Below are positions 1,890 to 64,000 of a DNA stretch of 64,000 nt, one piece after another (the stretch's first letter is position 1; each line of letters begins with the position of its first letter). Made by a program: the position numbers and the translations under genes. Origin of the DNA: Candidatus Micrarchaeia archaeon (lineage in GTDB: Archaea > Micrarchaeota > Micrarchaeia > Anstonellales > Anstonellaceae). The notes beneath the pieces are model-generated. The model was given only the letters and a program-made list of their open reading frames with translations, was not told the origin of the DNA and ran no database searches. Location: positions 107,350 to 171,349 of the forward strand of contig JBAYHU010000002.1 of NCBI GenBank assembly GCA_041665945.1. The letters are read 5' to 3'.

Positions 1890-2124
1890 GCGAAGCGAAT
1901 CTAAACAGACAAGCATCCGTAGATGCTTGGATGTTCCGCTGAGTCGCAACGAAGCGGAACAGACAGCACGAAGCGCTGGATGTTTAGGTGAGTCAGACGA
2001 ACCTAAACAGATGACAATGCCGCAGCATTGGCGGATGTTCAGGTGAGCGAAGCGAATCTAAACAGACAGTGCCCGCAGGCACTGGATGTTCAGGTGAGCG
2101 TTTTGCAAAGCCGCAACTTTGCAA
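1876..2124 (+). repeat. tandem array of about 4.5 units (49-55 bp), each with two stem-loops and an ATG-TTY-Arg-TGA mini-ORF; ends in a TTGCAAAG/CTTTGCAA hairpin
   Basis: Units start at 1876, 1929, 1978, 2033 and 2084 with the conserved core GGATGTTyAGrTGAGCGAAGCGAAyCTAAACAGACA. The first stem shows compensatory change (GTTTAGAT/ATCTAAAC versus GTTCCGCT/AGCGGAAC). The second hairpin is variable but palindromic (AAGCATCcgtaGATGCTT, CAATGCcgcaGCATTG, AGTGCCcgcAGGCACT). Unit 1 overlaps the dnaJ stop codon. Confidence 0.8.
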
Positions 2125-2130
2125 GTTAGT

Positions 2131-2888: not shown

Positions 2889-4508
2889 ATGCAAATCCAG
2901 CTCATGCCTGAAAACAAAACAGACGACGAAACAAAGAAATCCCTCCACTGGTCCGAGCAGCTTGCGCAGCAGATAATCGCCGAGAAGAACAAGCCATACG
3001 TGATTTCAGGCGGGCTTACCACTTCGGGGCCCACTCATTTGGGCACTGTTTGCGAATTCCTCTTCCCGCAGGCGATTGTGGACGCGCTGCGCTATTTGGG
3101 GGATGAGGCGAAATACTATTTTGTTGCGGACATTGCCGACTCGTTTGACGGAGTGCCATCTGCATTCGAGCAATACAAAGCCGTTCTTGAGCCGCACCTT
3201 GGGAAACCGCTTACTGACGTTCCGGACCCGACAGGGACAACCGCCTCGTTCGGCGATTACTTCCTTGCGGACGCGAAAGCGGCGATGGACAAGTTCGGCG
3301 TGAAGCCGGAAATAATCAGGGCAACTGACCTTTATGCAAAAGGGGCATTTGACAAATATGCGATTCTGTTTTTGAAAGAAGAAGCGCAGGTGCGCGAGAT
3401 TGTCGCAAAGTCCTCGCTTCGCGAGAAATTGCCGGACTGGTGGAGCCCGATAATGCCGACCTGCGGAAAATGCGGCAGGAACGCCACCACGCACGTGCTC
3501 AGGCACAGCGCGATGAAGGGAACCGAGAGGCTGGAGAGCAACAGCGGCGATGACATTGAATACGAATACGCTTGCGACCGCGATGTGAAATACACCAAGG
3601 GCTGCGGGCATGTTGGCAGGAACAAGATATCCGACCACAAGTACAAGCTCACTTGGAGGTTGCACTGGCCGGCATGGCAGGACCACTTCAACACCACCGC
3701 GGAGGGAGGGGGCGTGGACCACTTCACGCGCGGCGGGAGCAGGGACACGCTTGAGGTTGTTTTCAGGGACATTTTCAACAAGTCCCCGTCAATCGGCTAC
3801 AAGTTCGGGTTCATACTTTTCGAGGGAAAGAAATATTCCAAGTCAAAGGGGACGGGAATGGGCGTCTCCGAACTGATGGAGCTTCTCCCGCCCGAAGTGA
3901 TGAAGTACATGCTTCTCAAGCCGGACTTGCAGGAGAACATAGATATCGTGCCGACGGGCGTGAATCTTCTTAGGACGATTGATGATTATGAAAAGGCGAT
4001 AGTTCTTCTTGCGTCCGGCAAGATGGATGAGCTGACGCGCGCGGACCACAAGCGCGTGATGGCTGCGCGGCTCGCATCCGAGTCCGCGCAGATGGGGCGC
4101 GGCTGGAAGACGCCGTTCCTTGACCTTATACTGTACAGGAATTTGCAGTGGAGCTGGGAGAAAATCGCCGAGAAGACCGGCGATGCCGCGGCAGTGCAGA
4201 AGCTCTCGCCCTATCTTGAGGCATGGGAAAGGAGGAATTTCGTCCCCGAGGAATACGCGTTTGCCTACAAGCCGCAGAAAACGGCAGAAGGAAGCGCGGC
4301 TCGCGCGTTTTTCAGCAAGCTGAACGCATCCATGCCCGCGCTTGAAATCCACAACCTCGCTTTTGCGACTGCGAAGGAGATGAACGTCCCTCCTGCGCAG
4401 ATGTTCACCGAATGCTACACTGCGCTTCTTTCAAAGCCGAAGGGACCGAAGCTTGGCAAGCTGATTGAGGCGATGGGCGTTGAAAAAGTGAAGTCAGATG
4501 TCCTCTAA
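2889..4508 (+). CDS. lysK: class I lysyl-tRNA synthetase (archaeal type)
   Basis: HIGH-region variant (TSGPTHLGTVCEF) and KMSKS motif (KYSKSKGTG). Length of about 540 aa and the Zn-binding Cys cluster (CGKCGR...C) are typical of class I LysRS. Confidence 0.7.
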   Translation: MQIQLMPENKTDDETKKSLHWSEQLAQQIIAEKNKPYVISGGLTTSGPTHLGTVCEFLFPQAIVDALRYLGDEAKYYFVADIADSFDGVPSAFEQYKAVLEPHLGKPLTDVPDPTGTTASFGDYFLADAKAAMDKFGVKPEIIRATDLYAKGAFDKYAILFLKEEAQVREIVAKSSLREKLPDWWSPIMPTCGKCGRNATTHVLRHSAMKGTERLESNSGDDIEYEYACDRDVKYTKGCGHVGRNKISDHKYKLTWRLHWPAWQDHFNTTAEGGGVDHFTRGGSRDTLEVVFRDIFNKSPSIGYKFGFILFEGKKYSKSKGTGMGVSELMELLPPEVMKYMLLKPDLQENIDIVPTGVNLLRTIDDYEKAIVLLASGKMDELTRADHKRVMAARLASESAQMGRGWKTPFLDLILYRNLQWSWEKIAEKTGDAAAVQKLSPYLEAWERRNFVPEEYAFAYKPQKTAEGSAARAFFSKLNASMPALEIHNLAFATAKEMNVPPAQMFTECYTALLSKPKGPKLGKLIEAMGVEKVKSDVL

Positions 4509-5412
4509 AATTCGCGAAACAAACAAGAAATACTATTCATCCAAAGGCAAGAAGATTTACTCCGACTTCTCCACGTTCGCGCAGGGGAAAACGCTTGCGA
4601 AATGCAACGCGCTTGAGTTCGTGCGCGACTTTTCCGCAAGCAAATCCCCGCGGGTGGTGGTTTGCGAATACGGGATTGGCAGGGGAGACTTTGCCAAGAA
4701 TTTTCTTGACGAAGTGAAGAAGCTTGACAGGAAGCTGTATGCGAGGACAAGGTATTACCTGTTCGACTTTTCGGAAAAGATGATTGATGATGCGCGCGAG
4801 AACCTCGCCTCGCACGGGGCGGTTTGCGTTTTCGGGAAGTTCGATGCGGCGGCAGAGCAGCCGTTTTTGCAATTCGATTATTGCAGGATAAACGAGCTTC
4901 TGACCGATTTGCCGACGCTGGTTTGCCAGCTCAACAACGGAACCCTTCGCGAACTGGGAGGGAAGCCGATTGGGGATGCGTCGCCTTTTGTCGTCGAATT
5001 CCTCAAGCGCGTGGAGGACGGCAGGGCAATGCCGTTCAATTTCATTGGCGCGGAATTCCTCGCGAAGCTTTGCGCTTGCGGAAAGAAGAGCTTCAGGATT
5101 GACGTTTTCGATTACGGGTTTTATTCCTCAGATGAAGTGTTCGAGCATCCGGTTGATGAATGGAACAGGCTCATGGTGAGGGATTACGGCGGGCAGCTCA
5201 CGACGGATTTGAACGTTCCGTTCGTGCTCGCCCACCTTTCAGCCGCAGGCATAATCGCGAAAGCGGAGAAGCAGAAGGAATACTGCGAAAAAGTGCTTGG
5301 GAAAAAGCTTGCTCTTGCGGAACTGAAAAGCGGGCTGGACTACGTGCCTGTGAAAAAGGGCGACGCGATTTCGGAGGACGACGGGTTTTATCATTTGCGG
5401 CTGGGGAAGTAG
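4498..5412 (+). CDS. hypothetical protein, possible Rossmann/SAM-methyltransferase-fold
   Basis: VVVCEYGIGRGDF resembles methyltransferase motif I and YLFDFSEKMIDDA resembles motif II. The call is weak. It overlaps the lysK stop by 11 nt, suggesting co-transcription. Confidence 0.5.
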   Translation: MSSKIRETNKKYYSSKGKKIYSDFSTFAQGKTLAKCNALEFVRDFSASKSPRVVVCEYGIGRGDFAKNFLDEVKKLDRKLYARTRYYLFDFSEKMIDDARENLASHGAVCVFGKFDAAAEQPFLQFDYCRINELLTDLPTLVCQLNNGTLRELGGKPIGDASPFVVEFLKRVEDGRAMPFNFIGAEFLAKLCACGKKSFRIDVFDYGFYSSDEVFEHPVDEWNRLMVRDYGGQLTTDLNVPFVLAHLSAAGIIAKAEKQKEYCEKVLGKKLALAELKSGLDYVPVKKGDAISEDDGFYHLRLGK

Positions 5413-11767: not shown

Positions 11768-12073
11768 ATGAAAATTGACTCGTATCTGCACGCGGCTCTC
11801 GTCCTCAAGGGCGCAGAGAAGGAAATCACGAAGGAGAGCCTTGTGGCTGTCCTCAAGGCAGCCGGCGCCCCCGTCGAGGAGGCAAAGGCACAGGTCCTTG
11901 CGGAGGCTGTCAAGGGCGTCGACTTCGCCGAGCTTTTGAAGGCGGCAGTGGCACCGGTTGCAGCAGCGCCGGCGGCAGCAGCCCCGTCTGAGCACAAGAA
12001 GGAAGAGAAGAAGGAAGACCCTGCGAAGACCGAAGCGGCAGCCGCTGAGGGACTCGCGTCGCTCTTTGGCTAA
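11768..12073 (+). CDS. rpl12: 50S ribosomal stalk protein P1 (aL12)
   Basis: MKIDSYLHAALVL..., an Ala/Pro hinge, and the C-terminal EEKKEDPAKTEAAAAEGLASLFG. GGAGGT SD upstream. Confidence 0.9.
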   Translation: MKIDSYLHAALVLKGAEKEITKESLVAVLKAAGAPVEEAKAQVLAEAVKGVDFAELLKAAVAPVAAAPAAAAPSEHKKEEKKEDPAKTEAAAAEGLASLFG

Positions 12074-12100
12074 ATAGGCCTGAAAACTTTTTTCTCTCGG

Positions 12101-12200
12101 AAGACTGCGGCAGCAGTCTTACGCGCCTAAGGCAACTGCAACAGCAGTTGTCTGCGAGGTAGAGCCCGAAGGGCTCTACAACGTAGAGCCGCAGGCTCTA
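12101..12200 (+). repeat. array of four consecutive perfect stem-loops followed by an oligo-T tract (intrinsic terminator region)
   Basis: AAGACTGCggcaGCAGTCTT (12101-12120), CAACTGCaacaGCAGTTG (12133-12150), GTAGAGCCCgaaGGGCTCTAC (12159-12179) and TAGAGCCgcaGGCTCTA (12184-12200). The hairpin pairs differ by compensatory substitutions. The T-rich run 12207-12240 serves the convergent genes. Confidence 0.7.
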
Positions 12201-12232: not shown

Positions 12233-13108
12233 TTATTCTTTAGAATCCGTGAGCGGAAGCCTTTCTTCCTGCGTTGGCATGATACCGTAGAATGAGCCGG
12301 TCCTGCGAGGGGTTTTCGCCCCGATTTCGACGTCCCCTCCGGTGCTCCAGCGAAGCCCGACCGCCTCTTCGGGGTTTAGGTTGCCGATTTCAATGCCCCT
12401 GCTGCCAAGCTGCTCAAAAAGATTGGAAAGCGTGGCTTGCAATCCGAGGTTCTTGGTTTCCCTTGTCAGTTTGTCAAGCTGCTCAAAGCAATCGTCCACT
12501 ATCTTTTGAGTTTCGCCGTCGCCCGTTTCTTTCGCCTTTTCGCGAATCTGCGCGAGCTTGGTGAGGGTAAACTGCATGCAGGCGGCCATTTCCCCGCCGC
12601 TCACGCCGTTTTCAGACACGTACGTGTGCAATTCGTACGCCGGAAGGGCGATTCCCTTGCCGTCTTCCTGAAACTCGATGGGAACCGGAGTGATTCTTGT
12701 GAGCAGGTCGGAACCCAGGTGCCCGTTCGGATAATGCGTGATGTCGAGGCGGCCGTAGACCTCGGAATTGAAATAAAGCGGAGGGGGCGTCTTGAAATCC
12801 CTTGTTTTGGACTGCTCGATGATTTTCGAGTAGTTTTCAGGGCTTGTTGCGTCCGCCTTCTTCCATTTCGCCTCGAAGTAAAAATACGAGCCAGCTGCCA
12901 CGACAGGGGTGAACGCGAAGACGGCAGCCACCGCAACACCTGCAAACGGAAGGATGCCCTGCCCCTCGCAGCCGGCGAGCATGGAAAGCGAGGCAATGCC
13001 CGTGCCTGCGAGGAATTTTTTGAAAAAGCGGGATTTTGAAGCGCAGGGCTGGGACGCGGGAATTCCGCTATCGACCTGTCTGGGGATTTTTTTGTTATGC
13101 ATGGGCAT
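12233..13108 (-). CDS. hypothetical lipoprotein (signal peptide with lipobox LAGC)
   Basis: N-terminal basic region, hydrophobic stretch, and LAGC|EGQ lipobox. The rest has no known domain. Confidence 0.55.
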   Translation of the reverse strand: MPMHNKKIPRQVDSGIPASQPCASKSRFFKKFLAGTGIASLSMLAGCEGQGILPFAGVAVAAVFAFTPVVAAGSYFYFEAKWKKADATSPENYSKIIEQSKTRDFKTPPPLYFNSEVYGRLDITHYPNGHLGSDLLTRITPVPIEFQEDGKGIALPAYELHTYVSENGVSGGEMAACMQFTLTKLAQIREKAKETGDGETQKIVDDCFEQLDKLTRETKNLGLQATLSNLFEQLGSRGIEIGNLNPEEAVGLRWSTGGDVEIGAKTPRRTGSFYGIMPTQEERLPLTDSKE

Positions 13109-47985: not shown

Positions 47986-49092
47986 TCAGGCGAGGATTGC
48001 GGCTTTTTTGCAGAGAAGATAGACCGCGGATGCCATCGGAAGCTCAAGCGTGAGCCCTGCTGCAAGATGCTCGGGGACAAGGTGCGGCACTTCAGGGACT
48101 TCCTCGGTTGTCTTCACCCGAAGCGTGCCGCTCGTGAAAATCTGCGCGGACTTCATCGGGTCAAAGCCCTTCAATTCGGATGCTTCCATGCGCTTTGCAG
48201 CCAAGCCGCTGCCGCCGTGTATGGAGTCGGGCATGCGGATAAGCTTTGATGTGTCCGCAGTCACGTTGGCGTCAATCCTTCCTGCGAGCGTGAGCTTCAT
48301 CTGGTCGAACTTTTCCTGCAGTTTTTTCTCGCGGTTGGTGATGCCTATGTTGTCCCAGTTGCCGTTTTCGATTGCGGACTTGAGTTTTGCCCGCTCCTCC
48401 GGCTTTTTGAGCTTGCGGGAAACGGAAAGCGCGAATTTGTCGTCGTTGAGCTTTTCGACATAGGCGCGGGCGAATTTGCCGCCATACCCCCCCTGCGAGG
48501 GATTGGGACCGAGGAATTTCTTCCCATCCGCCCAGAACAAACGGGTGAACTCCAACCCTGTGCCTGTGACATAGTCTGCCACTTCGCGCCGCGCGTCGCG
48601 GTCAAGCTCTTTTACGGCATCGGAGCGCACATGCACGTGGTAGCCGCGGCTCCCTGAGAAATTGATTGAAAGCTCGCTTTTTGAAAATCCGAAGTCGGAG
48701 AGAAGGAAGTCGTTTATGAGCTGGAGCGCCTCCTCTTTCACCTTGTCCATGCAGTGCTGGCAGGTGAATTTGCCGCAGCTGTGCCCTTCGGCGTCGAGGT
48801 CGAAAATCAGGTCTGCGCCGAGCCAATTTTTCCTCACCATGGGGCGGGCATCGGGAAATTCGTAGTAGCCGACCGAGTGCGAGACGTAAAGCGGGGCTTC
48901 GGAAACGAGCTTCGCGCGCAGCTGTTCCTCGTTTTTCACTCCGATGTGGCGGAATTCGATTTTCTTTTCCCAGCCGCCGAAGCCGAACTCGCGCTTTTCC
49001 GGGGAAACGACACTTATGCCGCCGTGCTTGTAGTGCTCGGAGAATATTTTCCTGAGGAATTTCTCTTCCGGAGATTGGAGTGTTTGGCTCAT
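47986..49092 (-). CDS. priS: DNA primase small (catalytic) subunit
   Basis: DLIFDLDAEGH and SGSRGYHVHV catalytic motifs. Confidence 0.9.
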   Translation of the reverse strand: MSQTLQSPEEKFLRKIFSEHYKHGGISVVSPEKREFGFGGWEKKIEFRHIGVKNEEQLRAKLVSEAPLYVSHSVGYYEFPDARPMVRKNWLGADLIFDLDAEGHSCGKFTCQHCMDKVKEEALQLINDFLLSDFGFSKSELSINFSGSRGYHVHVRSDAVKELDRDARREVADYVTGTGLEFTRLFWADGKKFLGPNPSQGGYGGKFARAYVEKLNDDKFALSVSRKLKKPEERAKLKSAIENGNWDNIGITNREKKLQEKFDQMKLTLAGRIDANVTADTSKLIRMPDSIHGGSGLAAKRMEASELKGFDPMKSAQIFTSGTLRVKTTEEVPEVPHLVPEHLAAGLTLELPMASAVYLLCKKAAILA

Positions 49093-50072
49093 GGCTTTTC
49101 ACTTCCCTTGTTCTCTTCTTCCATTCGCTTGAGGCGCCTGCCATGTATTTCCTGCCTGAAGTTCAGTGGCGTTCCGCAGTGGCACTCCGCTACGCACGCG
49201 CCGTAGCTGTCCATCGTCGAGCAGGAGGGCATGTTGTATTTCCTCGCGCGGATGTGCTCCACCTGATAGCGGGTTGTCTTTTCGTTGAAGTCAGGCGCGT
49301 GGCGGAAAAATTCCACGATTTTGTCTGTTGTAAGCCCGACGTTCACGAGGTAGATGGCAAGCGCCACCCTGCCGGTGTGCGGCACGTTGATGTTCAGCGC
49401 GAGCTCCTCAATCATCTTCGTAATGCACGGGGGATATCCTTCCTGCCCCACGCGGATAAGCGCTGTTTCGAGCTTGGGAAGGATTGATAGTATCCTTGCG
49501 CCAGCCGCCTTGACTTCGGGCTGGAATTCCGCCCTTATGGGAAGGGATGATTCGGTGCGCTTTTTCACAGCTTCCTCAAGAATGCGGAGCCGCTCCATTT
49601 TCTTCACGCGCACCTTGCCGCCAGATACTTCACGGTTGGAGAGCTTGTAGTCAATCGAGCGGGGGGTGTAGGCAAGATAGCCGGAAAGCGGGAGGGCATA
49701 CCACTCGCCGGACTTTTCGAATTTCACGCCGAATTCGGATGCCACTTCGTCAATGAAGGCGGGGCGGGAGGCGTCGTCGGAATTGAGGTATTCCCTTGCG
49801 CGCTTCGCCTCTGCGACGGCATAGCGGTTGATGAGATAGCGGTTGTTCGCGGAAGAGATTATCATGCGGGAAGCCGCGTAGAGCGCGAGCTCCTCTTCCA
49901 TGGTGTCGGGAAGCTCGGCAACTCGGCGTATTTTGCCGTCAAGCACCGCTTCTTTCACCCGCGCTTCCGCCTTGTCAAGGATGGAAGAAGTGAGTTCAAG
50001 CCCCTTTCCTGAAACGTATTCCTTTGCCTGGCGAGAGAAAGGGTAATGTGAGCAGAAAACCAAATCCGCCAT
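49089..50072 (-). CDS. priL: DNA primase large subunit
   Basis: C-terminal 4Fe-4S domain (CSTMDSYGACVAECHCGTP). Its stop overlaps the priS start. Start set at MADLVF (50070-50072) because the longer track ORF reads through the tRNA gene. Confidence 0.8.
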   Translation of the reverse strand: MADLVFCSHYPFSRQAKEYVSGKGLELTSSILDKAEARVKEAVLDGKIRRVAELPDTMEEELALYAASRMIISSANNRYLINRYAVAEAKRAREYLNSDDASRPAFIDEVASEFGVKFEKSGEWYALPLSGYLAYTPRSIDYKLSNREVSGGKVRVKKMERLRILEEAVKKRTESSLPIRAEFQPEVKAAGARILSILPKLETALIRVGQEGYPPCITKMIEELALNINVPHTGRVALAIYLVNVGLTTDKIVEFFRHAPDFNEKTTRYQVEHIRARKYNMPSCSTMDSYGACVAECHCGTPLNFRQEIHGRRLKRMEEENKGSEKP

Positions 50073-50222
50073 GGCGACCGGATTATTCTTTGCTTTTGTG
50101 TTTAAAAAATCAAGGTAAGGATGATACCGCTGAAGAAGTAGGAAGCCCCCGACGAGCGACAACACGAAGTGTTGTCGCGATTTTGACCCGCAGGTCAAAA
50201 CGGGGGCTCGAACCGCAGTGAG

Positions 50223-50294
50223 AGCCCCCGACGAGGATTGAACTCGTGACCTCGTGCTTACCATGCACGCGCTCTACCGCTGAGCTACAGGGGC
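50223..50294 (-). tRNA. tRNA-Thr (anticodon GGU)
   Basis: Reverse complement reads GCCCCTGTAGCTCAGCGGTAGAGCGCGTGCATGGTAAGCACGAGGTCACGAGTTCAATCCTCGTCGGGGGCT. 7-bp acceptor stem with one G-U pair. D-arm GCTC/GAGC. Anticodon stem CGTGC/GCACG with loop AUGGUAA. T-arm ACGAG/CTCGT with loop TTCAATC. No encoded CCA. Confidence 0.85.
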
Positions 50295-50383
50295 ATGGAA
50301 AATTTCCTCAGAAATTTTCCAGTATTCGAGCCGCAGCTCGAATCTGATTTACAAAATCCCGCAGGATTTTGTAAAATTGACGC

Positions 50384-52775
<2,392 letters not shown>

Positions 52776-63872: not shown

Positions 63873-64000
63873 TCATACGTAAATGTTCGAAAGCATCCCC
63901 TCAAGCAGGTAGGACGTCACGAAGAATATCACAAGCGAAACCGCGAGGAGCACAGGCACATAGGGGATGCCGTCGCGCTTGCTGCCCTTTGAAATCACGC
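63873..64000 (-). CDS. C-terminal fragment of a membrane protein (5' end lies outside the window)
   Basis: Minus-strand ORF runs off the right edge. It ends ...IPYVPVLLAVSLVIFFVTSYLLEGMLSNIYV with TGA at about 63873. Confidence 0.3.
   Translation of the reverse strand, partial: VISKGSKRDGIPYVPVLLAVSLVIFFVTSYLLEGMLSNIYV

Follow-up and report, generated by a model that had tools for sequence, protein, structure and literature searches.

Duplicated tRNA 3′ ends are usually read as the footprints of integrated elements. One such duplication lies behind the gene for tRNA-Thr(GGU) in the 64-kb stretch of chromosome analyzed here (the window), which comes from Candidatus Micrarchaeia, a DPANN archaeon, and it raises the question of whether the short segment bounded by the repeat is mobile-element debris or a working part of the tRNA precursor. 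Our best explanation, to which the comparison of sequences gives about an even chance, is that the cassette forms a structured, lineage-specific part of the precursor of tRNA-Thr(GGU) and is not the debris of a mobile element.

The tRNA gene is flanked by purA and priL and has the acceptor stem GCCCCUG/CGGGGGC with discriminator U. The 13-mer AGCCCCCGACGAG occurs exactly twice, 66 bp apart, and on the tRNA strand consists of CUCGU, CGGGGGC and U, corresponding to the T-stem 3′ strand, the acceptor 3′ strand and the discriminator, respectively. Identity to the tRNA 3′ end is 13/13 in the window and 14/14 in the closest relative, L018. Allowing up to one mismatch, there are 2 matches in 64 kb compared with 0.11 expected from shuffles. 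The first-pass annotation had described the exact 13-bp direct repeat around 66 bp, along with the tRNA gene and six hairpins; each of these features was recovered in its place and above chance expectation (Table 1). The neighbors of the locus are housekeeping genes (purA, priL, priS, and GINS), and the same architecture is present in independent ENA and JGI assemblies, which excludes an assembly artefact. A search of the genome contigs with PurA gave a single match (45%), which is unrelated; the closest PurA relative is P0122 (89%). The continuation of the window contig for 7.4 kb beyond position 64000 (L024) contains no additional tRNA.

Table 1. Features of the tRNA-Thr(GGU) locus, in order of transcription of the tRNA strand (window coordinates)
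Feature	Position	Strand	Description
AUUGUUUUAAAAGACGU	50400..50416	minus	inside purA 3′ end
TTTTAAAA, putative TATA box	50405-50412	minus	118 nt before tRNA
Leader hairpin H1	50348-50375	minus	perfect Watson-Crick stem, 12 bp; loop UGCG on tRNA strand
Leader hairpin H2	50324-50343	minus	perfect Watson-Crick stem, 8 bp; loop UGCG on tRNA strand
Leader hairpin H3	50296-50321	minus	perfect Watson-Crick stem, 11 bp; loop UGAG on tRNA strand
tRNA-Thr(GGU)	50223..50294	minus	72 nt, CCA not encoded; ARAGORN; Rfam RF00005, 65.9 bits
Proximal 13-mer, CUCGUCGGGGGCU	50223..50235	minus	T-stem 3′ strand, acceptor 3′ strand, and discriminator
Spacer, CUCACUGCGGUUCG	50209..50222	minus	loop of hairpin Ha
Anti-acceptor, AGCCCCCG (GAGCCCCCG including 50209)	50201..50208	minus	complements tRNA 3′ acceptor strand
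Hairpin Ha	50201-50209 with 50222-50230		perfect 9 bp, 12-nt loop; uses tRNA 3′ strand
Hairpin HA, UUUUGACC-UGCG-GGUCAAAA	50181..50200	minus	perfect 8 bp; loop CGCA on forward strand
Hairpin HB, GCGACAACAC-UUC-GUGUUGUCGC	50156..50178	minus	perfect 10 bp; loop GAA on forward strand
Distal 13-mer	50144..50156	minus	exact copy of tRNA 3′ end
TTTTTTAAA	50101..50109	minus	first run of at least 5 T after cassette

One cassette unit is ∼80 nt long and stands directly behind the tRNA. It opens with a spacer of 10–17 nt, continues with an anti-acceptor segment and then the hairpins HA and HB, both very stable, and closes with the 13 nt of the tRNA 3′ end in a second copy. The first 6 nt of the spacer, CUCACU, are also the start of the tRNA trailer in L017 and L021. 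The anti-acceptor is close to a copy of the tRNA 5′ acceptor strand and has two possible partners: it pairs over 9 bp with the tRNA 3′ acceptor strand, forming hairpin Ha, or over 8 bp with the distal copy (50144–50151), forming helix P1. The latter complementarity makes the cassette able to close on itself as a three-way junction. Three of the four cassettes compared are closed by a perfect 8-bp helix, AGCCCCCG/CGGGGGCU or its local counterpart, which contributes −15.4 kcal/mol and reproduces the acceptor stem and discriminator. The GC-rich Ha leads into a U run, UUUU in the window and UUU in each of the other three cassettes.

The stems are nearly all perfect Watson-Crick helices with hardly any G-U pairs. 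Perfect hairpins with stems of 8 bp or more number ∼14 in the window, five of them no farther than 220 nt from the tRNA, and 8 hairpins combine such a stem with a 4-nt loop, compared with 0–3 in 20 shuffles. The c-UGCG-g arrangement occurs three times in the window and once more at the apex of Ha; the extra stability of cUNCGg loops is well established. The loops of HA and HB are 3–4 nt long, and the cassette has no tRNA covariance-model score. Rfam scans at gathering thresholds found nothing besides the tRNA, and a permissive cmscan (E up to 10) of window positions 50090–50400 and L016 positions 4100–4510 returned the true tRNA only. Tandem Repeats Finder had no repeat to report at this locus and did not pick up the divergent hairpin arrays. 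A hidden T-arm or permuted tRNA in GGUUCGAGCCCCCG...UUUUGACC was considered and rejected, as the T stem is imperfect, A58 is missing from one L016 unit (L016a), and the pattern is not conserved.

Comparison of the locus among relatives, a check proposed with the initial description, reveals the 66 bp plus 13 bp as a unit of presence and absence. The cassette is absent from L004, a close relative with the same locus, and from L021; it is present once in L018 and twice in tandem in L016. The limits of the indel are exactly the 13-nt repeat, and the sequence right after the tRNA in L004 is homologous to the window sequence beyond the second 13-mer. The four cassettes available, from three genomes, share one architecture and differ in sequence. 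Their interiors are 62%–69% identical, including the two L016 units, which at 65% are as diverged from each other as cassettes are across genomes, so that their duplication is old. Of the 52 positions in the distal 13-mers, by comparison, 49 agree with the local tRNA (94%; P about 7e-7 at 65% identity). Both ends of the cassette also carry the local tRNA allele (G69 or A69), as C:G in the window and U:A in L018 and L016, a correspondence that depends on one substitution event (4:69).

The hairpins themselves are maintained by paired changes. HA is homologous in L018 and L016 and compensatory at 3 of its 8 pairs: one of these shows three types of pair, and the other two show double changes. Its first three U-A pairs are invariant. 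The stem sequence of HB is wholly different between cassettes and its pairing is retained. In the second L016 unit (L016b), the anti-acceptor still pairs with the preceding 13-mer copy, and the following copy is degenerate. A scan of ∼200 kb of sequence for a perfect closing helix around two perfect hairpins found these cassettes behind tRNA-Thr only.

The surroundings of the tRNA are consistent with a single transcript containing the cassette. The element TTTTAAAA is probably the TATA box of the tRNA promoter. Across AUUGUUUUAAAAGACGU, six consecutive third-codon positions of purA are invariant in 9 loci, compared with 0 of 19 in the preceding codons, and the distance from the putative TATA box to the tRNA follows the number of leader hairpins. 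The leader hairpins are conserved in L004 and L021, with 5 of 31 pairs compensatory among these three close genomes, and hairpins of other sequence occupy the same place in L011, L014, L016, L017, and L022. On the other side of the cassette, TTTTTTAAA, conserved in L004 and L018, would be expected from archaeal oligo-T termination to act as the terminator of the tRNA transcript and may double as the TATA box of priL (ATG at 50070–50072). A promoter/terminator scan returned no intrinsic terminator, but it uses a bacterial consensus, with 5 T in 8 needed for a terminator, and is uninformative here. Hairpins are not needed for termination in archaea. On this reading, a promoter within the 3′ end of purA would drive tRNA and cassette together, and the RNA would take in three leader hairpins ahead of the tRNA and the cassette behind it and end at the T6 run before priL.

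Within such an RNA, the acceptor strands of the tRNA itself would be the pairing partners of the cassette ends. The anti-acceptor would take the tRNA 3′ strand in the 9-bp Ha helix, and the distal 13-mer would then serve as a second T-stem/acceptor 3′ strand for the tRNA body. This strand-exchange arrangement is the predicted minimum-free-energy fold, at −79.0 kcal/mol with Ha formed and the tRNA 5′ strand on the distal copy, compared with −54.8 kcal/mol for the cloverleaf with HA and HB and −70.2 kcal/mol when helix P1 is included. The same topology is the minimum-free-energy fold in L016, and the z-scores are −8.4 and −7.1. Alternatively, the cassette ends would pair with each other, in a three-way junction of 65 nt with the same acceptor stem and discriminator U as tRNA-Thr. 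We tentatively favor strand exchange, as it alone explains how both the anti-acceptor and the entire 13-mer, with its otherwise unpaired CUCGU, have kept their match to the local tRNA; the free-standing tRNA-like structure is the more doubtful of the two predicted arrangements.

Known systems offer partial parallels. Split tRNAs of Nanoarchaeum are said to carry complementary leader and trailer segments. Among the split and permuted tRNA genes of archaea (reviewed in PMC3978253), as in the cassette, GC-rich segments of a DPANN genome that lie outside the mature tRNA complement each other or the tRNA ends and guide, or in the cassette would guide, precursor folding. Split-tRNA segments, however, join gene halves through a bulge-helix-bulge, whereas here the tRNA gene is intact and there is no such junction. 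Another likeness is to tRNA-like processing signals such as mascRNA at the MALAT1 3′ end (PMC8457004) and the tRNA-like structures of viruses (PMC9976931), in which an acceptor-stem-like helix likewise closes a compact multi-helix fold. Those RNAs retain the T-arm and elbow mimicry, whereas the cassette lacks a T-loop, a D-loop, and an anticodon-like loop and, unlike them, sits directly behind the tRNA that it mimics and is matched to it in sequence. Since the cassette has a discriminator followed by a trailer, cleavage by RNase P or RNase Z may be possible in principle. In Haloferax volcanii, U73 and acceptor pairs are threonine identity elements (PMC9976931), which for the cassette is a lead only.

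The likely role of such a module would be the control or protection of tRNA-Thr 3′-end maturation. A more specific proposal, speculative and on balance improbable, is a cis-encoded “anti-acceptor plus spare 3′ end” switch or, as a related possibility, a released 65-nt mimic of the tRNA-Thr acceptor that could be CCA-tailed or charged. For the candidate switch, the trailer would invade the acceptor stem of a newly made tRNA-Thr, with the discriminator as toehold, and the tRNA 5′ strand would move to the second copy of the 3′ end; two alternative precursors would result, to be matured, tagged, or degraded differently. Copy numbers of 0, 1, or 2 would arise by recombination between the 13-nt direct repeats. 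The cassette may have originated either as a tandem tRNA copy whose interior was remodeled into hairpins or as an ancient integration-type 3′-end duplication that was later co-opted.

RNA processing in DPANN archaea is almost unstudied, and pairing of the cassette with the tRNA acceptor strands, if functional, would be a new cis-acting layer of tRNA maturation control in these organisms. A switch or mimic would amount to a previously undescribed control of one tRNA species, in a reduced DPANN genome. The case shows that a duplicated tRNA 3′ end can also enclose a small, conserved, structured unit with ends that co-evolve with the tRNA; automated callers of genomic islands and tRNA fragments would mislabel it. 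Our literature searches turned up no account of cassettes like these, or of the hairpin strings, for Micrarchaeota or DPANN archaea.

However, several observations weigh against a structured module. The sample is four cassettes from three genomes, the allele tracking is a single event, and the absence of the cassette from L004 and L021 shows that it is dispensable. Near-perfect Watson-Crick stems are unusual for an RNA under selection; a palindrome at the DNA level, or self-templated repair, would be compatible with them too. Transcription could often stop at the U3–4 tract immediately behind the anti-acceptor, in which case HA, HB, and the distal copy would be missing from many transcripts. 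Real att-type partial duplications exist at tRNA-Thr in L009/L015, making an integration origin of the distal copy conceivable. The hairpin loops give evidence on both sides. Among 40 flanking hairpins from 12 loci, 36 have a loop beginning with U when read on the tRNA strand and 3 when read on the other strand, a bias that supports the module by pointing to a single-strand function. In a similar, separate hairpin string at 1890–2125, however, the U-first loops are on the strand opposite the adjacent dnaJ gene, so the strand rule is not proven to follow transcription.

The cassette could instead be the neutral leftover of a tandem tRNA-Thr duplication, a pseudo-tRNA without specific function whose hairpins reflect a genome-wide tendency to spacer palindromes; we regard this as rather unlikely. 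It would account for the tRNA-like order and spacing (65–72 nt) in which the two acceptor strands, the 3′ strand of the T stem, and the discriminator are found, for the dispensability of the cassette, and for unique-hairpin strings in other spacers, a tRNA intron, and a partial tRNA copy. Pseudo-tRNAs left by tandem duplication are familiar from the duplication-random-loss model for mitochondrial genomes, and like them the cassette is a tRNA-sized unit beside its parent with some stem sequences retained. But pseudo-tRNAs decay uniformly and lose their structure, whereas the cassette has conserved ends and an interior rebuilt into perfect hairpins. Neutral decay should strike ends and interior equally and not leave them at 94% and ∼65%; nor does it fit ends that track the tRNA allele, double substitutions that preserve the stems, or the lack of any Rfam tRNA signal at E up to 10.

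Less likely still is an inert scar, in which an element integrated at the tRNA-Thr T-loop/3′ end, duplicated the last 13 nt, and was then deleted except for 66 functionless bp. Integrative elements reportedly leave partial direct repeats of the tRNA genes that serve as their att sites, and an integrase with crossover in the T-loop is said to leave repeats of the pattern seen here. The repeat is the exact 3′ end of the gene and starts at the T-loop/T-stem edge, at C61 in the window, U60 in L018, and A58/U59 in block 2 of L009. An insert is bounded by this repeat, and L004 and L021 show the empty site; presence thus differs among relatives. L009/L015 moreover contain a classic partial tRNA-Thr copy (positions 39–73), ∼0.8 kb downstream of the intact gene, and this longer 3′ copy marks tRNA-Thr as a recombination target in the lineage. 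Known tRNA att cases have repeats of ∼20–60 bp and kb-sized elements with an integrase. Archaeal examples typically have ∼44-bp repeats around kb-sized islands (PMC9897764). The cassette shares with these a 3′-end direct repeat downstream of an intact tRNA, variable presence, and a start at a loop/stem edge but differs in having 13–14 bp repeats around a gene-free 66–74 bp, an inverted acceptor copy, conserved hairpins, and tandem units.

The suggestion of an integration or excision scar made in the first-pass annotation stands as far as the repeat-bounded indel is concerned and fails in the search for its agent. No integrase or mobile-element gene was found in the 64-kb window or beside the locus when the 26 window ORFs were scanned against Pfam for recombinases and the precomputed Pfam annotation of L024 was consulted, and exact-pattern scans of one collection, IMG/VR, gave 0 matches to an attP-like junction, the tRNA, or the double 13-mer. 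An integrase-bearing element with matching att sites, which that annotation proposed to look for, thus did not emerge. A scar also does not predict a remnant of the same architecture and 66–74 nt in three genomes, twice in one of them, or an inverted copy of the acceptor strand that tracks the tRNA allele. The hairpins are kept by compensatory change and the 13-mer is far better conserved than the interior; together with the inverted acceptor copy, this argues against the earlier idea of a remnant of an excised element.

An active miniature DNA cassette is very unlikely. Here a recombinase with its gene elsewhere would insert, excise, or amplify a non-autonomous unit of ∼80 nt at the tRNA 3′ end; the 13-mer would be the core site, and the hairpins would fold as single-stranded DNA in the manner of integron attC or IS200/IS605-type chemistry. 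Consistent with this, a single fixed site holds 0, 1, or 2 copies, each unit ends in the core repeat, and the core agrees with the target allele of its own locus, a requirement of strand-exchange chemistry. The stems are perfectly paired, the loop asymmetry is strand specific, and the three hairpin strings of the window all lie on one chromosome strand regardless of the orientation of the neighboring gene. A fixed chromosome-strand rule is, however, contradicted by a string in L009 with U-first loops on the strand opposite the tRNA. The divergence of the L016 units, as great as that between genomes, gives no sign of recent movement, and in ∼200 kb the cassettes were found behind tRNA-Thr only. 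There are no terminal inverted repeats, attC core of the GTTRRRY type, or recombinase. An integron attC was rejected on the lack of GTTRRRY/RYYYAAC on either cassette strand and of an IntI integrase, and a MITE or IS-derived miniature element on the lack of terminal inverted repeats, the single-copy hairpin arms, and the restriction to tRNA-Thr. A copy-pasted multicopy hairpin module, also raised at the outset, is contradicted by the same arms: a search for further copies in the 64 kb found none.

Finally, a non-canonical intron or alternative 3′ exon, in which 79 nt (66+13) would be spliced out and the distal copy would become the mature 3′ end, is essentially refuted even though the distal copy is the partner of the tRNA 5′ strand in the minimum-free-energy fold and this tRNA has a canonical-position intron in L022/L023: boundaries that are direct repeats cannot pair into a bulge-helix-bulge, none (3-nt bulge/4-bp helix/3-nt bulge) was present in the predicted folds inspected, the proximal copy already completes a normal tRNA, and the distal copies of L016 (CUCUU..., CAGAGUC) would disrupt one or other of the T and acceptor stems.

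The hairpins flanking the tRNA belong to a wider pattern. Many of their loops are of the cUNCGg type, with UGCG, UUCG, and UCCG making up 12 of 40 in the 12-locus census. Strings of short stable hairpins in spacers by gene ends recall REP/BIME elements and hairpin clusters, the latter mentioned as terminators in one source (PMC8355165). REP elements form multicopy families tied to RAYT transposases, whereas here every stem is unique and the U-first, UNCG-like loop type alone is shared; REP/BIME-type palindromes were rejected on these grounds. The string at 1890–2125, which includes a UACG loop, was also considered as a CRISPR-like array and rejected, the “spacers” being 13–21 nt hairpins. A short contig inside the window (L026) is identical to the window across the 1831–2200 array. 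In these genomes, strings of unique, perfect hairpins with U-first (UNCG-like) loops are found in leaders and trailers, in a tRNA intron, and in other spacers, and unique-hairpin strings extend to a partial tRNA copy as well.

The first-pass annotation's description of the tRNA-Thr(GGU) locus is accurate. ARAGORN and Rfam both call the tRNA gene, all six hairpins noted around it are perfect stems, and the 13-mer that duplicates its 3' end, AGCCCCCGACGAG, occurs in two exact copies with no third site in the window, even at one mismatch (0.11 such matches predicted by shuffles). Read on the tRNA strand, this 13-mer is CUCGU-CGGGGGC-U and corresponds precisely to the 3' strands of the T stem and acceptor stem plus the discriminator. 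The hairpins cluster strongly: the 64-kb window contains ∼14 perfect hairpins with 8 bp or more, and 5 of them lie within 220 nt of the tRNA. Eight hairpins in the window combine a 4-nt loop with a stem of 8 bp or longer, against 0–3 in shuffles. PriL and PurA homologues carry source names that assign the window, a chromosome segment, to a Candidatus Micrarchaeia (DPANN) archaeon. An independent ENA assembly (L002) carries an identical locus. The Logan contig SRR6484324_110345 (L003) matches the window without a difference across purA and the tRNA and ends 3 nt past the tRNA 3' end; this could reflect strains that differ at the cassette junction, or merely low coverage, in that sample.

Coordinates of the tRNA-Thr locus, its repeats and related hairpin strings
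Feature	Position	Strand	Remarks
tRNA-Thr(GGU)	window 50223-50294	minus	CCA not encoded
13-mer, two copies	window 50144-50156 (distal) and 50223-50235 (proximal)
purA	window 50384-51694		one side of tRNA-Thr
priL	window 49089-50072		other side of tRNA-Thr
ATTGTTTTAAAAGACGT	window 50400-50416		purA 3' end; nucleotide-identical in nine loci; six invariant synonymous sites
Hairpin array beside dnaJ	window 1890-2125	read on minus	∼5 units
Hairpin string beside rpP1	window 12095-12200		four consecutive perfect hairpins
Partial tRNA-Thr copy	L009 1005-1149 (also L015)	minus	positions 39-58, ∼107-nt hairpin-rich insert, positions 59-73
Further hairpin string	L009 785-990		∼7 hairpins
Intron-bearing tRNA-Thr(GGU)	L022/L023 ∼3403-3562
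Additional leader hairpins	L004 2303-2357		two, between H3 and tRNA; not in window

The cassette, comprising the 66-bp hairpin unit and the 13-bp distal copy, is an indel unit bounded by the repeat of the tRNA 3' end. The first-pass annotation had proposed comparing the locus in relatives, and these were found through PriL and PurA homologues, their contigs and a single search of metagenomes for a tRNA-specific pattern. L004 (PurA 88%, PriL 85%) keeps the purA-tRNA-priL order without the cassette, and in alignment its trailer matches the part of the window behind the second 13-mer, not the first. The cassette is likewise absent from L021 (PurA 83%), where the tRNA is followed by CUCACUUUUU, and from the more distant loci L011, L012, L017 and L010/13; the L014 contig stops 6 nt beyond the tRNA and is uninformative on the trailer. 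A single cassette is present in the closest relative, L018 (PriL 87%), where its last 14 nt repeat the tRNA 3' end exactly, and L016 (PurA 80%) has two in tandem (L016a and L016b). On the PurA tree, ((window, L004), L021), L016, this pattern requires either an old cassette that was lost at least twice or a cassette gained repeatedly. Both the two-unit array and the empty site are obtainable by unequal recombination between two 13-mers, and we infer that copy number changes by such repeat recombination.

The four cassettes, homologous across three genomes, share one order: a spacer of 10–17 nt, an anti-acceptor segment, hairpin HA, a short linker, hairpin HB, a linker and the distal 13-mer. A scan of ∼200 kb of sequence for a perfect closing helix around two perfect hairpins matched only these cassettes. 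The anti-acceptor (AGCCCCCG, or AGCCUCCG and variants) is a near-copy of the tRNA 5' strand, and is complementary both to the tRNA 3' acceptor strand (9, 9, 8 and 6 bp, reaching past the discriminator in two cases) and to the distal copy (8, 8 and 8 bp; 4/6 in L016b). The two hairpins are maintained by compensatory change. In every cassette HA opens with three U-A pairs immediately after CCG, followed by U-A/C-G/G-C, A-U/C-G and C-G/G-C variation at three positions, and HB stems of 7–10 bp are unrelated between cassettes. Cassette interiors are 62–69% identical in every pair; L016a and L016b are as diverged as the others, so the L016 tandem array is old. The cassette ends, one a complement and the other a copy of tRNA acceptor-strand sequence, remain matched to the tRNA. 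There are two main tRNA alleles, GCCCCUG/CGGGGGC (window) and GCCUCCG/CGGAGGC (L004, L016 and L018), and in each genome the local one recurs in both the anti-acceptor and the distal copy. Summed over the distal 13-mers, 49 of 52 positions are those of the local tRNA (P ∼7e-7 at 65% identity). The interior thus drifts within the limits set by pairing, whereas the ends stay tied to the sequence of the tRNA.

Folding of the 255-nt region gives z = -8.4 (L016 region, -7.1). For the 165-nt precursor, the cloverleaf with HA and HB is predicted at -54.8 kcal/mol, and at -70.2 kcal/mol once the closing helix P1, between anti-acceptor and distal copy, completes a three-way junction. The minimum-free-energy fold, at -79.0 kcal/mol, places the tRNA 3' strand and the anti-acceptor in a hairpin (Ha) and the tRNA 5' strand on the distal copy. 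The cloverleaf is helped by tertiary interactions within the tRNA and by the order of transcription, so both states are plausible. We prefer a model in which the cassette would be a cis-acting module pairing with the tRNA's own acceptor strands, as it alone accounts for the constraint shared by the anti-acceptor and all 13 distal nucleotides, including the otherwise unpaired CUCGU. A free-standing mimic of the tRNA-Thr acceptor would be a close second; threonine identity elements in Haloferax include acceptor pairs and U73 (PMC9976931). Candidate roles for the cassette are control or protection of tRNA 3' maturation, and assistance to termination by a hairpin and U-tract.

The reading of the locus as the scar of a mobile element was only partly right: the repeat-bounded indel unit stands, and the mobile machinery was not found. 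No recombinase was found in 26 ORFs of the window or in the flank with annotation, exact-pattern scans of IMG/VR gave no attP-like junction, tRNA copy or double 13-mer, and the hairpin arms, proposed to recur as a copied module, are single-copy in the window. The neighbours are all housekeeping genes: priS and GINS downstream of priL, and DHH, prefoldin, Pcc1, L37ae and exosome genes upstream. tRNA-Thr is nevertheless a recombination target in this lineage, as a partial copy in L009/L015 shows. This copy shares the chromosomal neighbourhood of the intact gene, lying ∼0.8 kb downstream of it, and looks like a true att-type remnant, the attR left by a small integrated element into which hairpins came later; the intervening unannotated 222-aa ORF has no Pfam or PHROG match. 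A T-loop-crossover integrase would produce repeats starting at the T-loop/T-stem edge. Repeats start there in the window, L018 and L009 alike, so an integration-type origin of the distal copy is possible. Typical archaeal cases have ∼44-bp repeats around ∼20-kb islands (PMC9897764). The repeat recalls an att scar, the closing helix a tRNA-like processing element and the pairing outside the mature tRNA Nanoarchaeum-type guide complementarity, but the cassette lacks defining features of each; no description of it was found in the searchable literature.

The final purA codons include CG ATT GTT TTA AAA GAC GT, in which six consecutive third positions are invariant across nine divergent loci, against 0 of 19 in the preceding codons. 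The nine loci with ATTGTTTTAAAAGACGT are the window, L004, L011, L012, L014, L016, L017, L021 and L022. The distance from TTTTAAAA to the tRNA rises with leader hairpin number, from 39 nt in L012, without leader hairpins, to 118–125 nt in six loci with three and 167 and 175 nt in two loci with five. TTTTAAAA is probably the TATA box of a tRNA promoter that lies inside the purA coding sequence, and the leader hairpins would belong to a long 5' leader of the tRNA transcript. Hairpin count varies on this side too, the additional L004 pair being GGUUGUGC-UGAU-GCACAACC and CAACUGC-UUC-GCAGUUG. The first run of at least five Ts after the tRNA (50104-50109) sits beyond the cassette, so, judging by archaeal oligo-T termination, the cassette is probably transcribed, presumably together with the tRNA.

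Loop composition would fit action at the RNA level. Among 40 perfect flanking hairpins in 12 loci, U is the first loop base in 36 on the tRNA strand and in only 3 on the other, and C-G-closed UGCG, UUCG and UCCG loops are among the commonest types (12/40). Such a strand bias is incompatible with a function as a simple double-stranded palindrome and is consistent with RNA. As a caution, the stems are nearly devoid of G-U pairs, and the two further window strings, beside dnaJ and rpP1, also have U-first loops on the minus strand, even though the former lies downstream of plus-strand dnaJ. That string could be a separate minus-strand RNA starting at the palindromic TATATATA. In L009, a string beside a plus-strand ORF carries its U-first loops on the non-tRNA strand, which argues against a fixed chromosome-strand rule.

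The array between dnaJ (768-1889, plus) and the following plus-strand gene alternates a unique perfect hairpin (UGCG, UACG or UUC loop) with a ∼35-nt semi-conserved one, GUCUGUUUAGAUUCGCUUCGCUCAYCURAACAUCC. In one copy the stem is GUUCCGC/GCGGAAC, a compensatory change, and the plus strand of the unit has GCGAAGC with tandem G-A on its flanks. The array (fold z = -6.8) is identical in a JGI contig, has no Rfam match, was not detected by TRF and may be a novel ncRNA or dnaJ 3' UTR. The other string lies between convergent rpP1 (11768-12073, plus) and an ORF (12233-13108, minus), with minus-strand loops UGCG, UUC, UGUU and UGCC.

The tRNA gene itself also varies. In L022/L023 (PurA 77%) it holds a ∼90-nt intron at the canonical 37/38 position, which contains hairpins, and default-mode ARAGORN fails to call it. 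The alleles GCCCCUG... and GCCUCCG... differ at six positions, each 100% conserved across divergent genomes. Their distribution conflicts with the PurA tree, the window sharing its allele with distant outgroups and its nearest relatives carrying the other, which suggests either tRNA gene replacement by recombination or parallel change.
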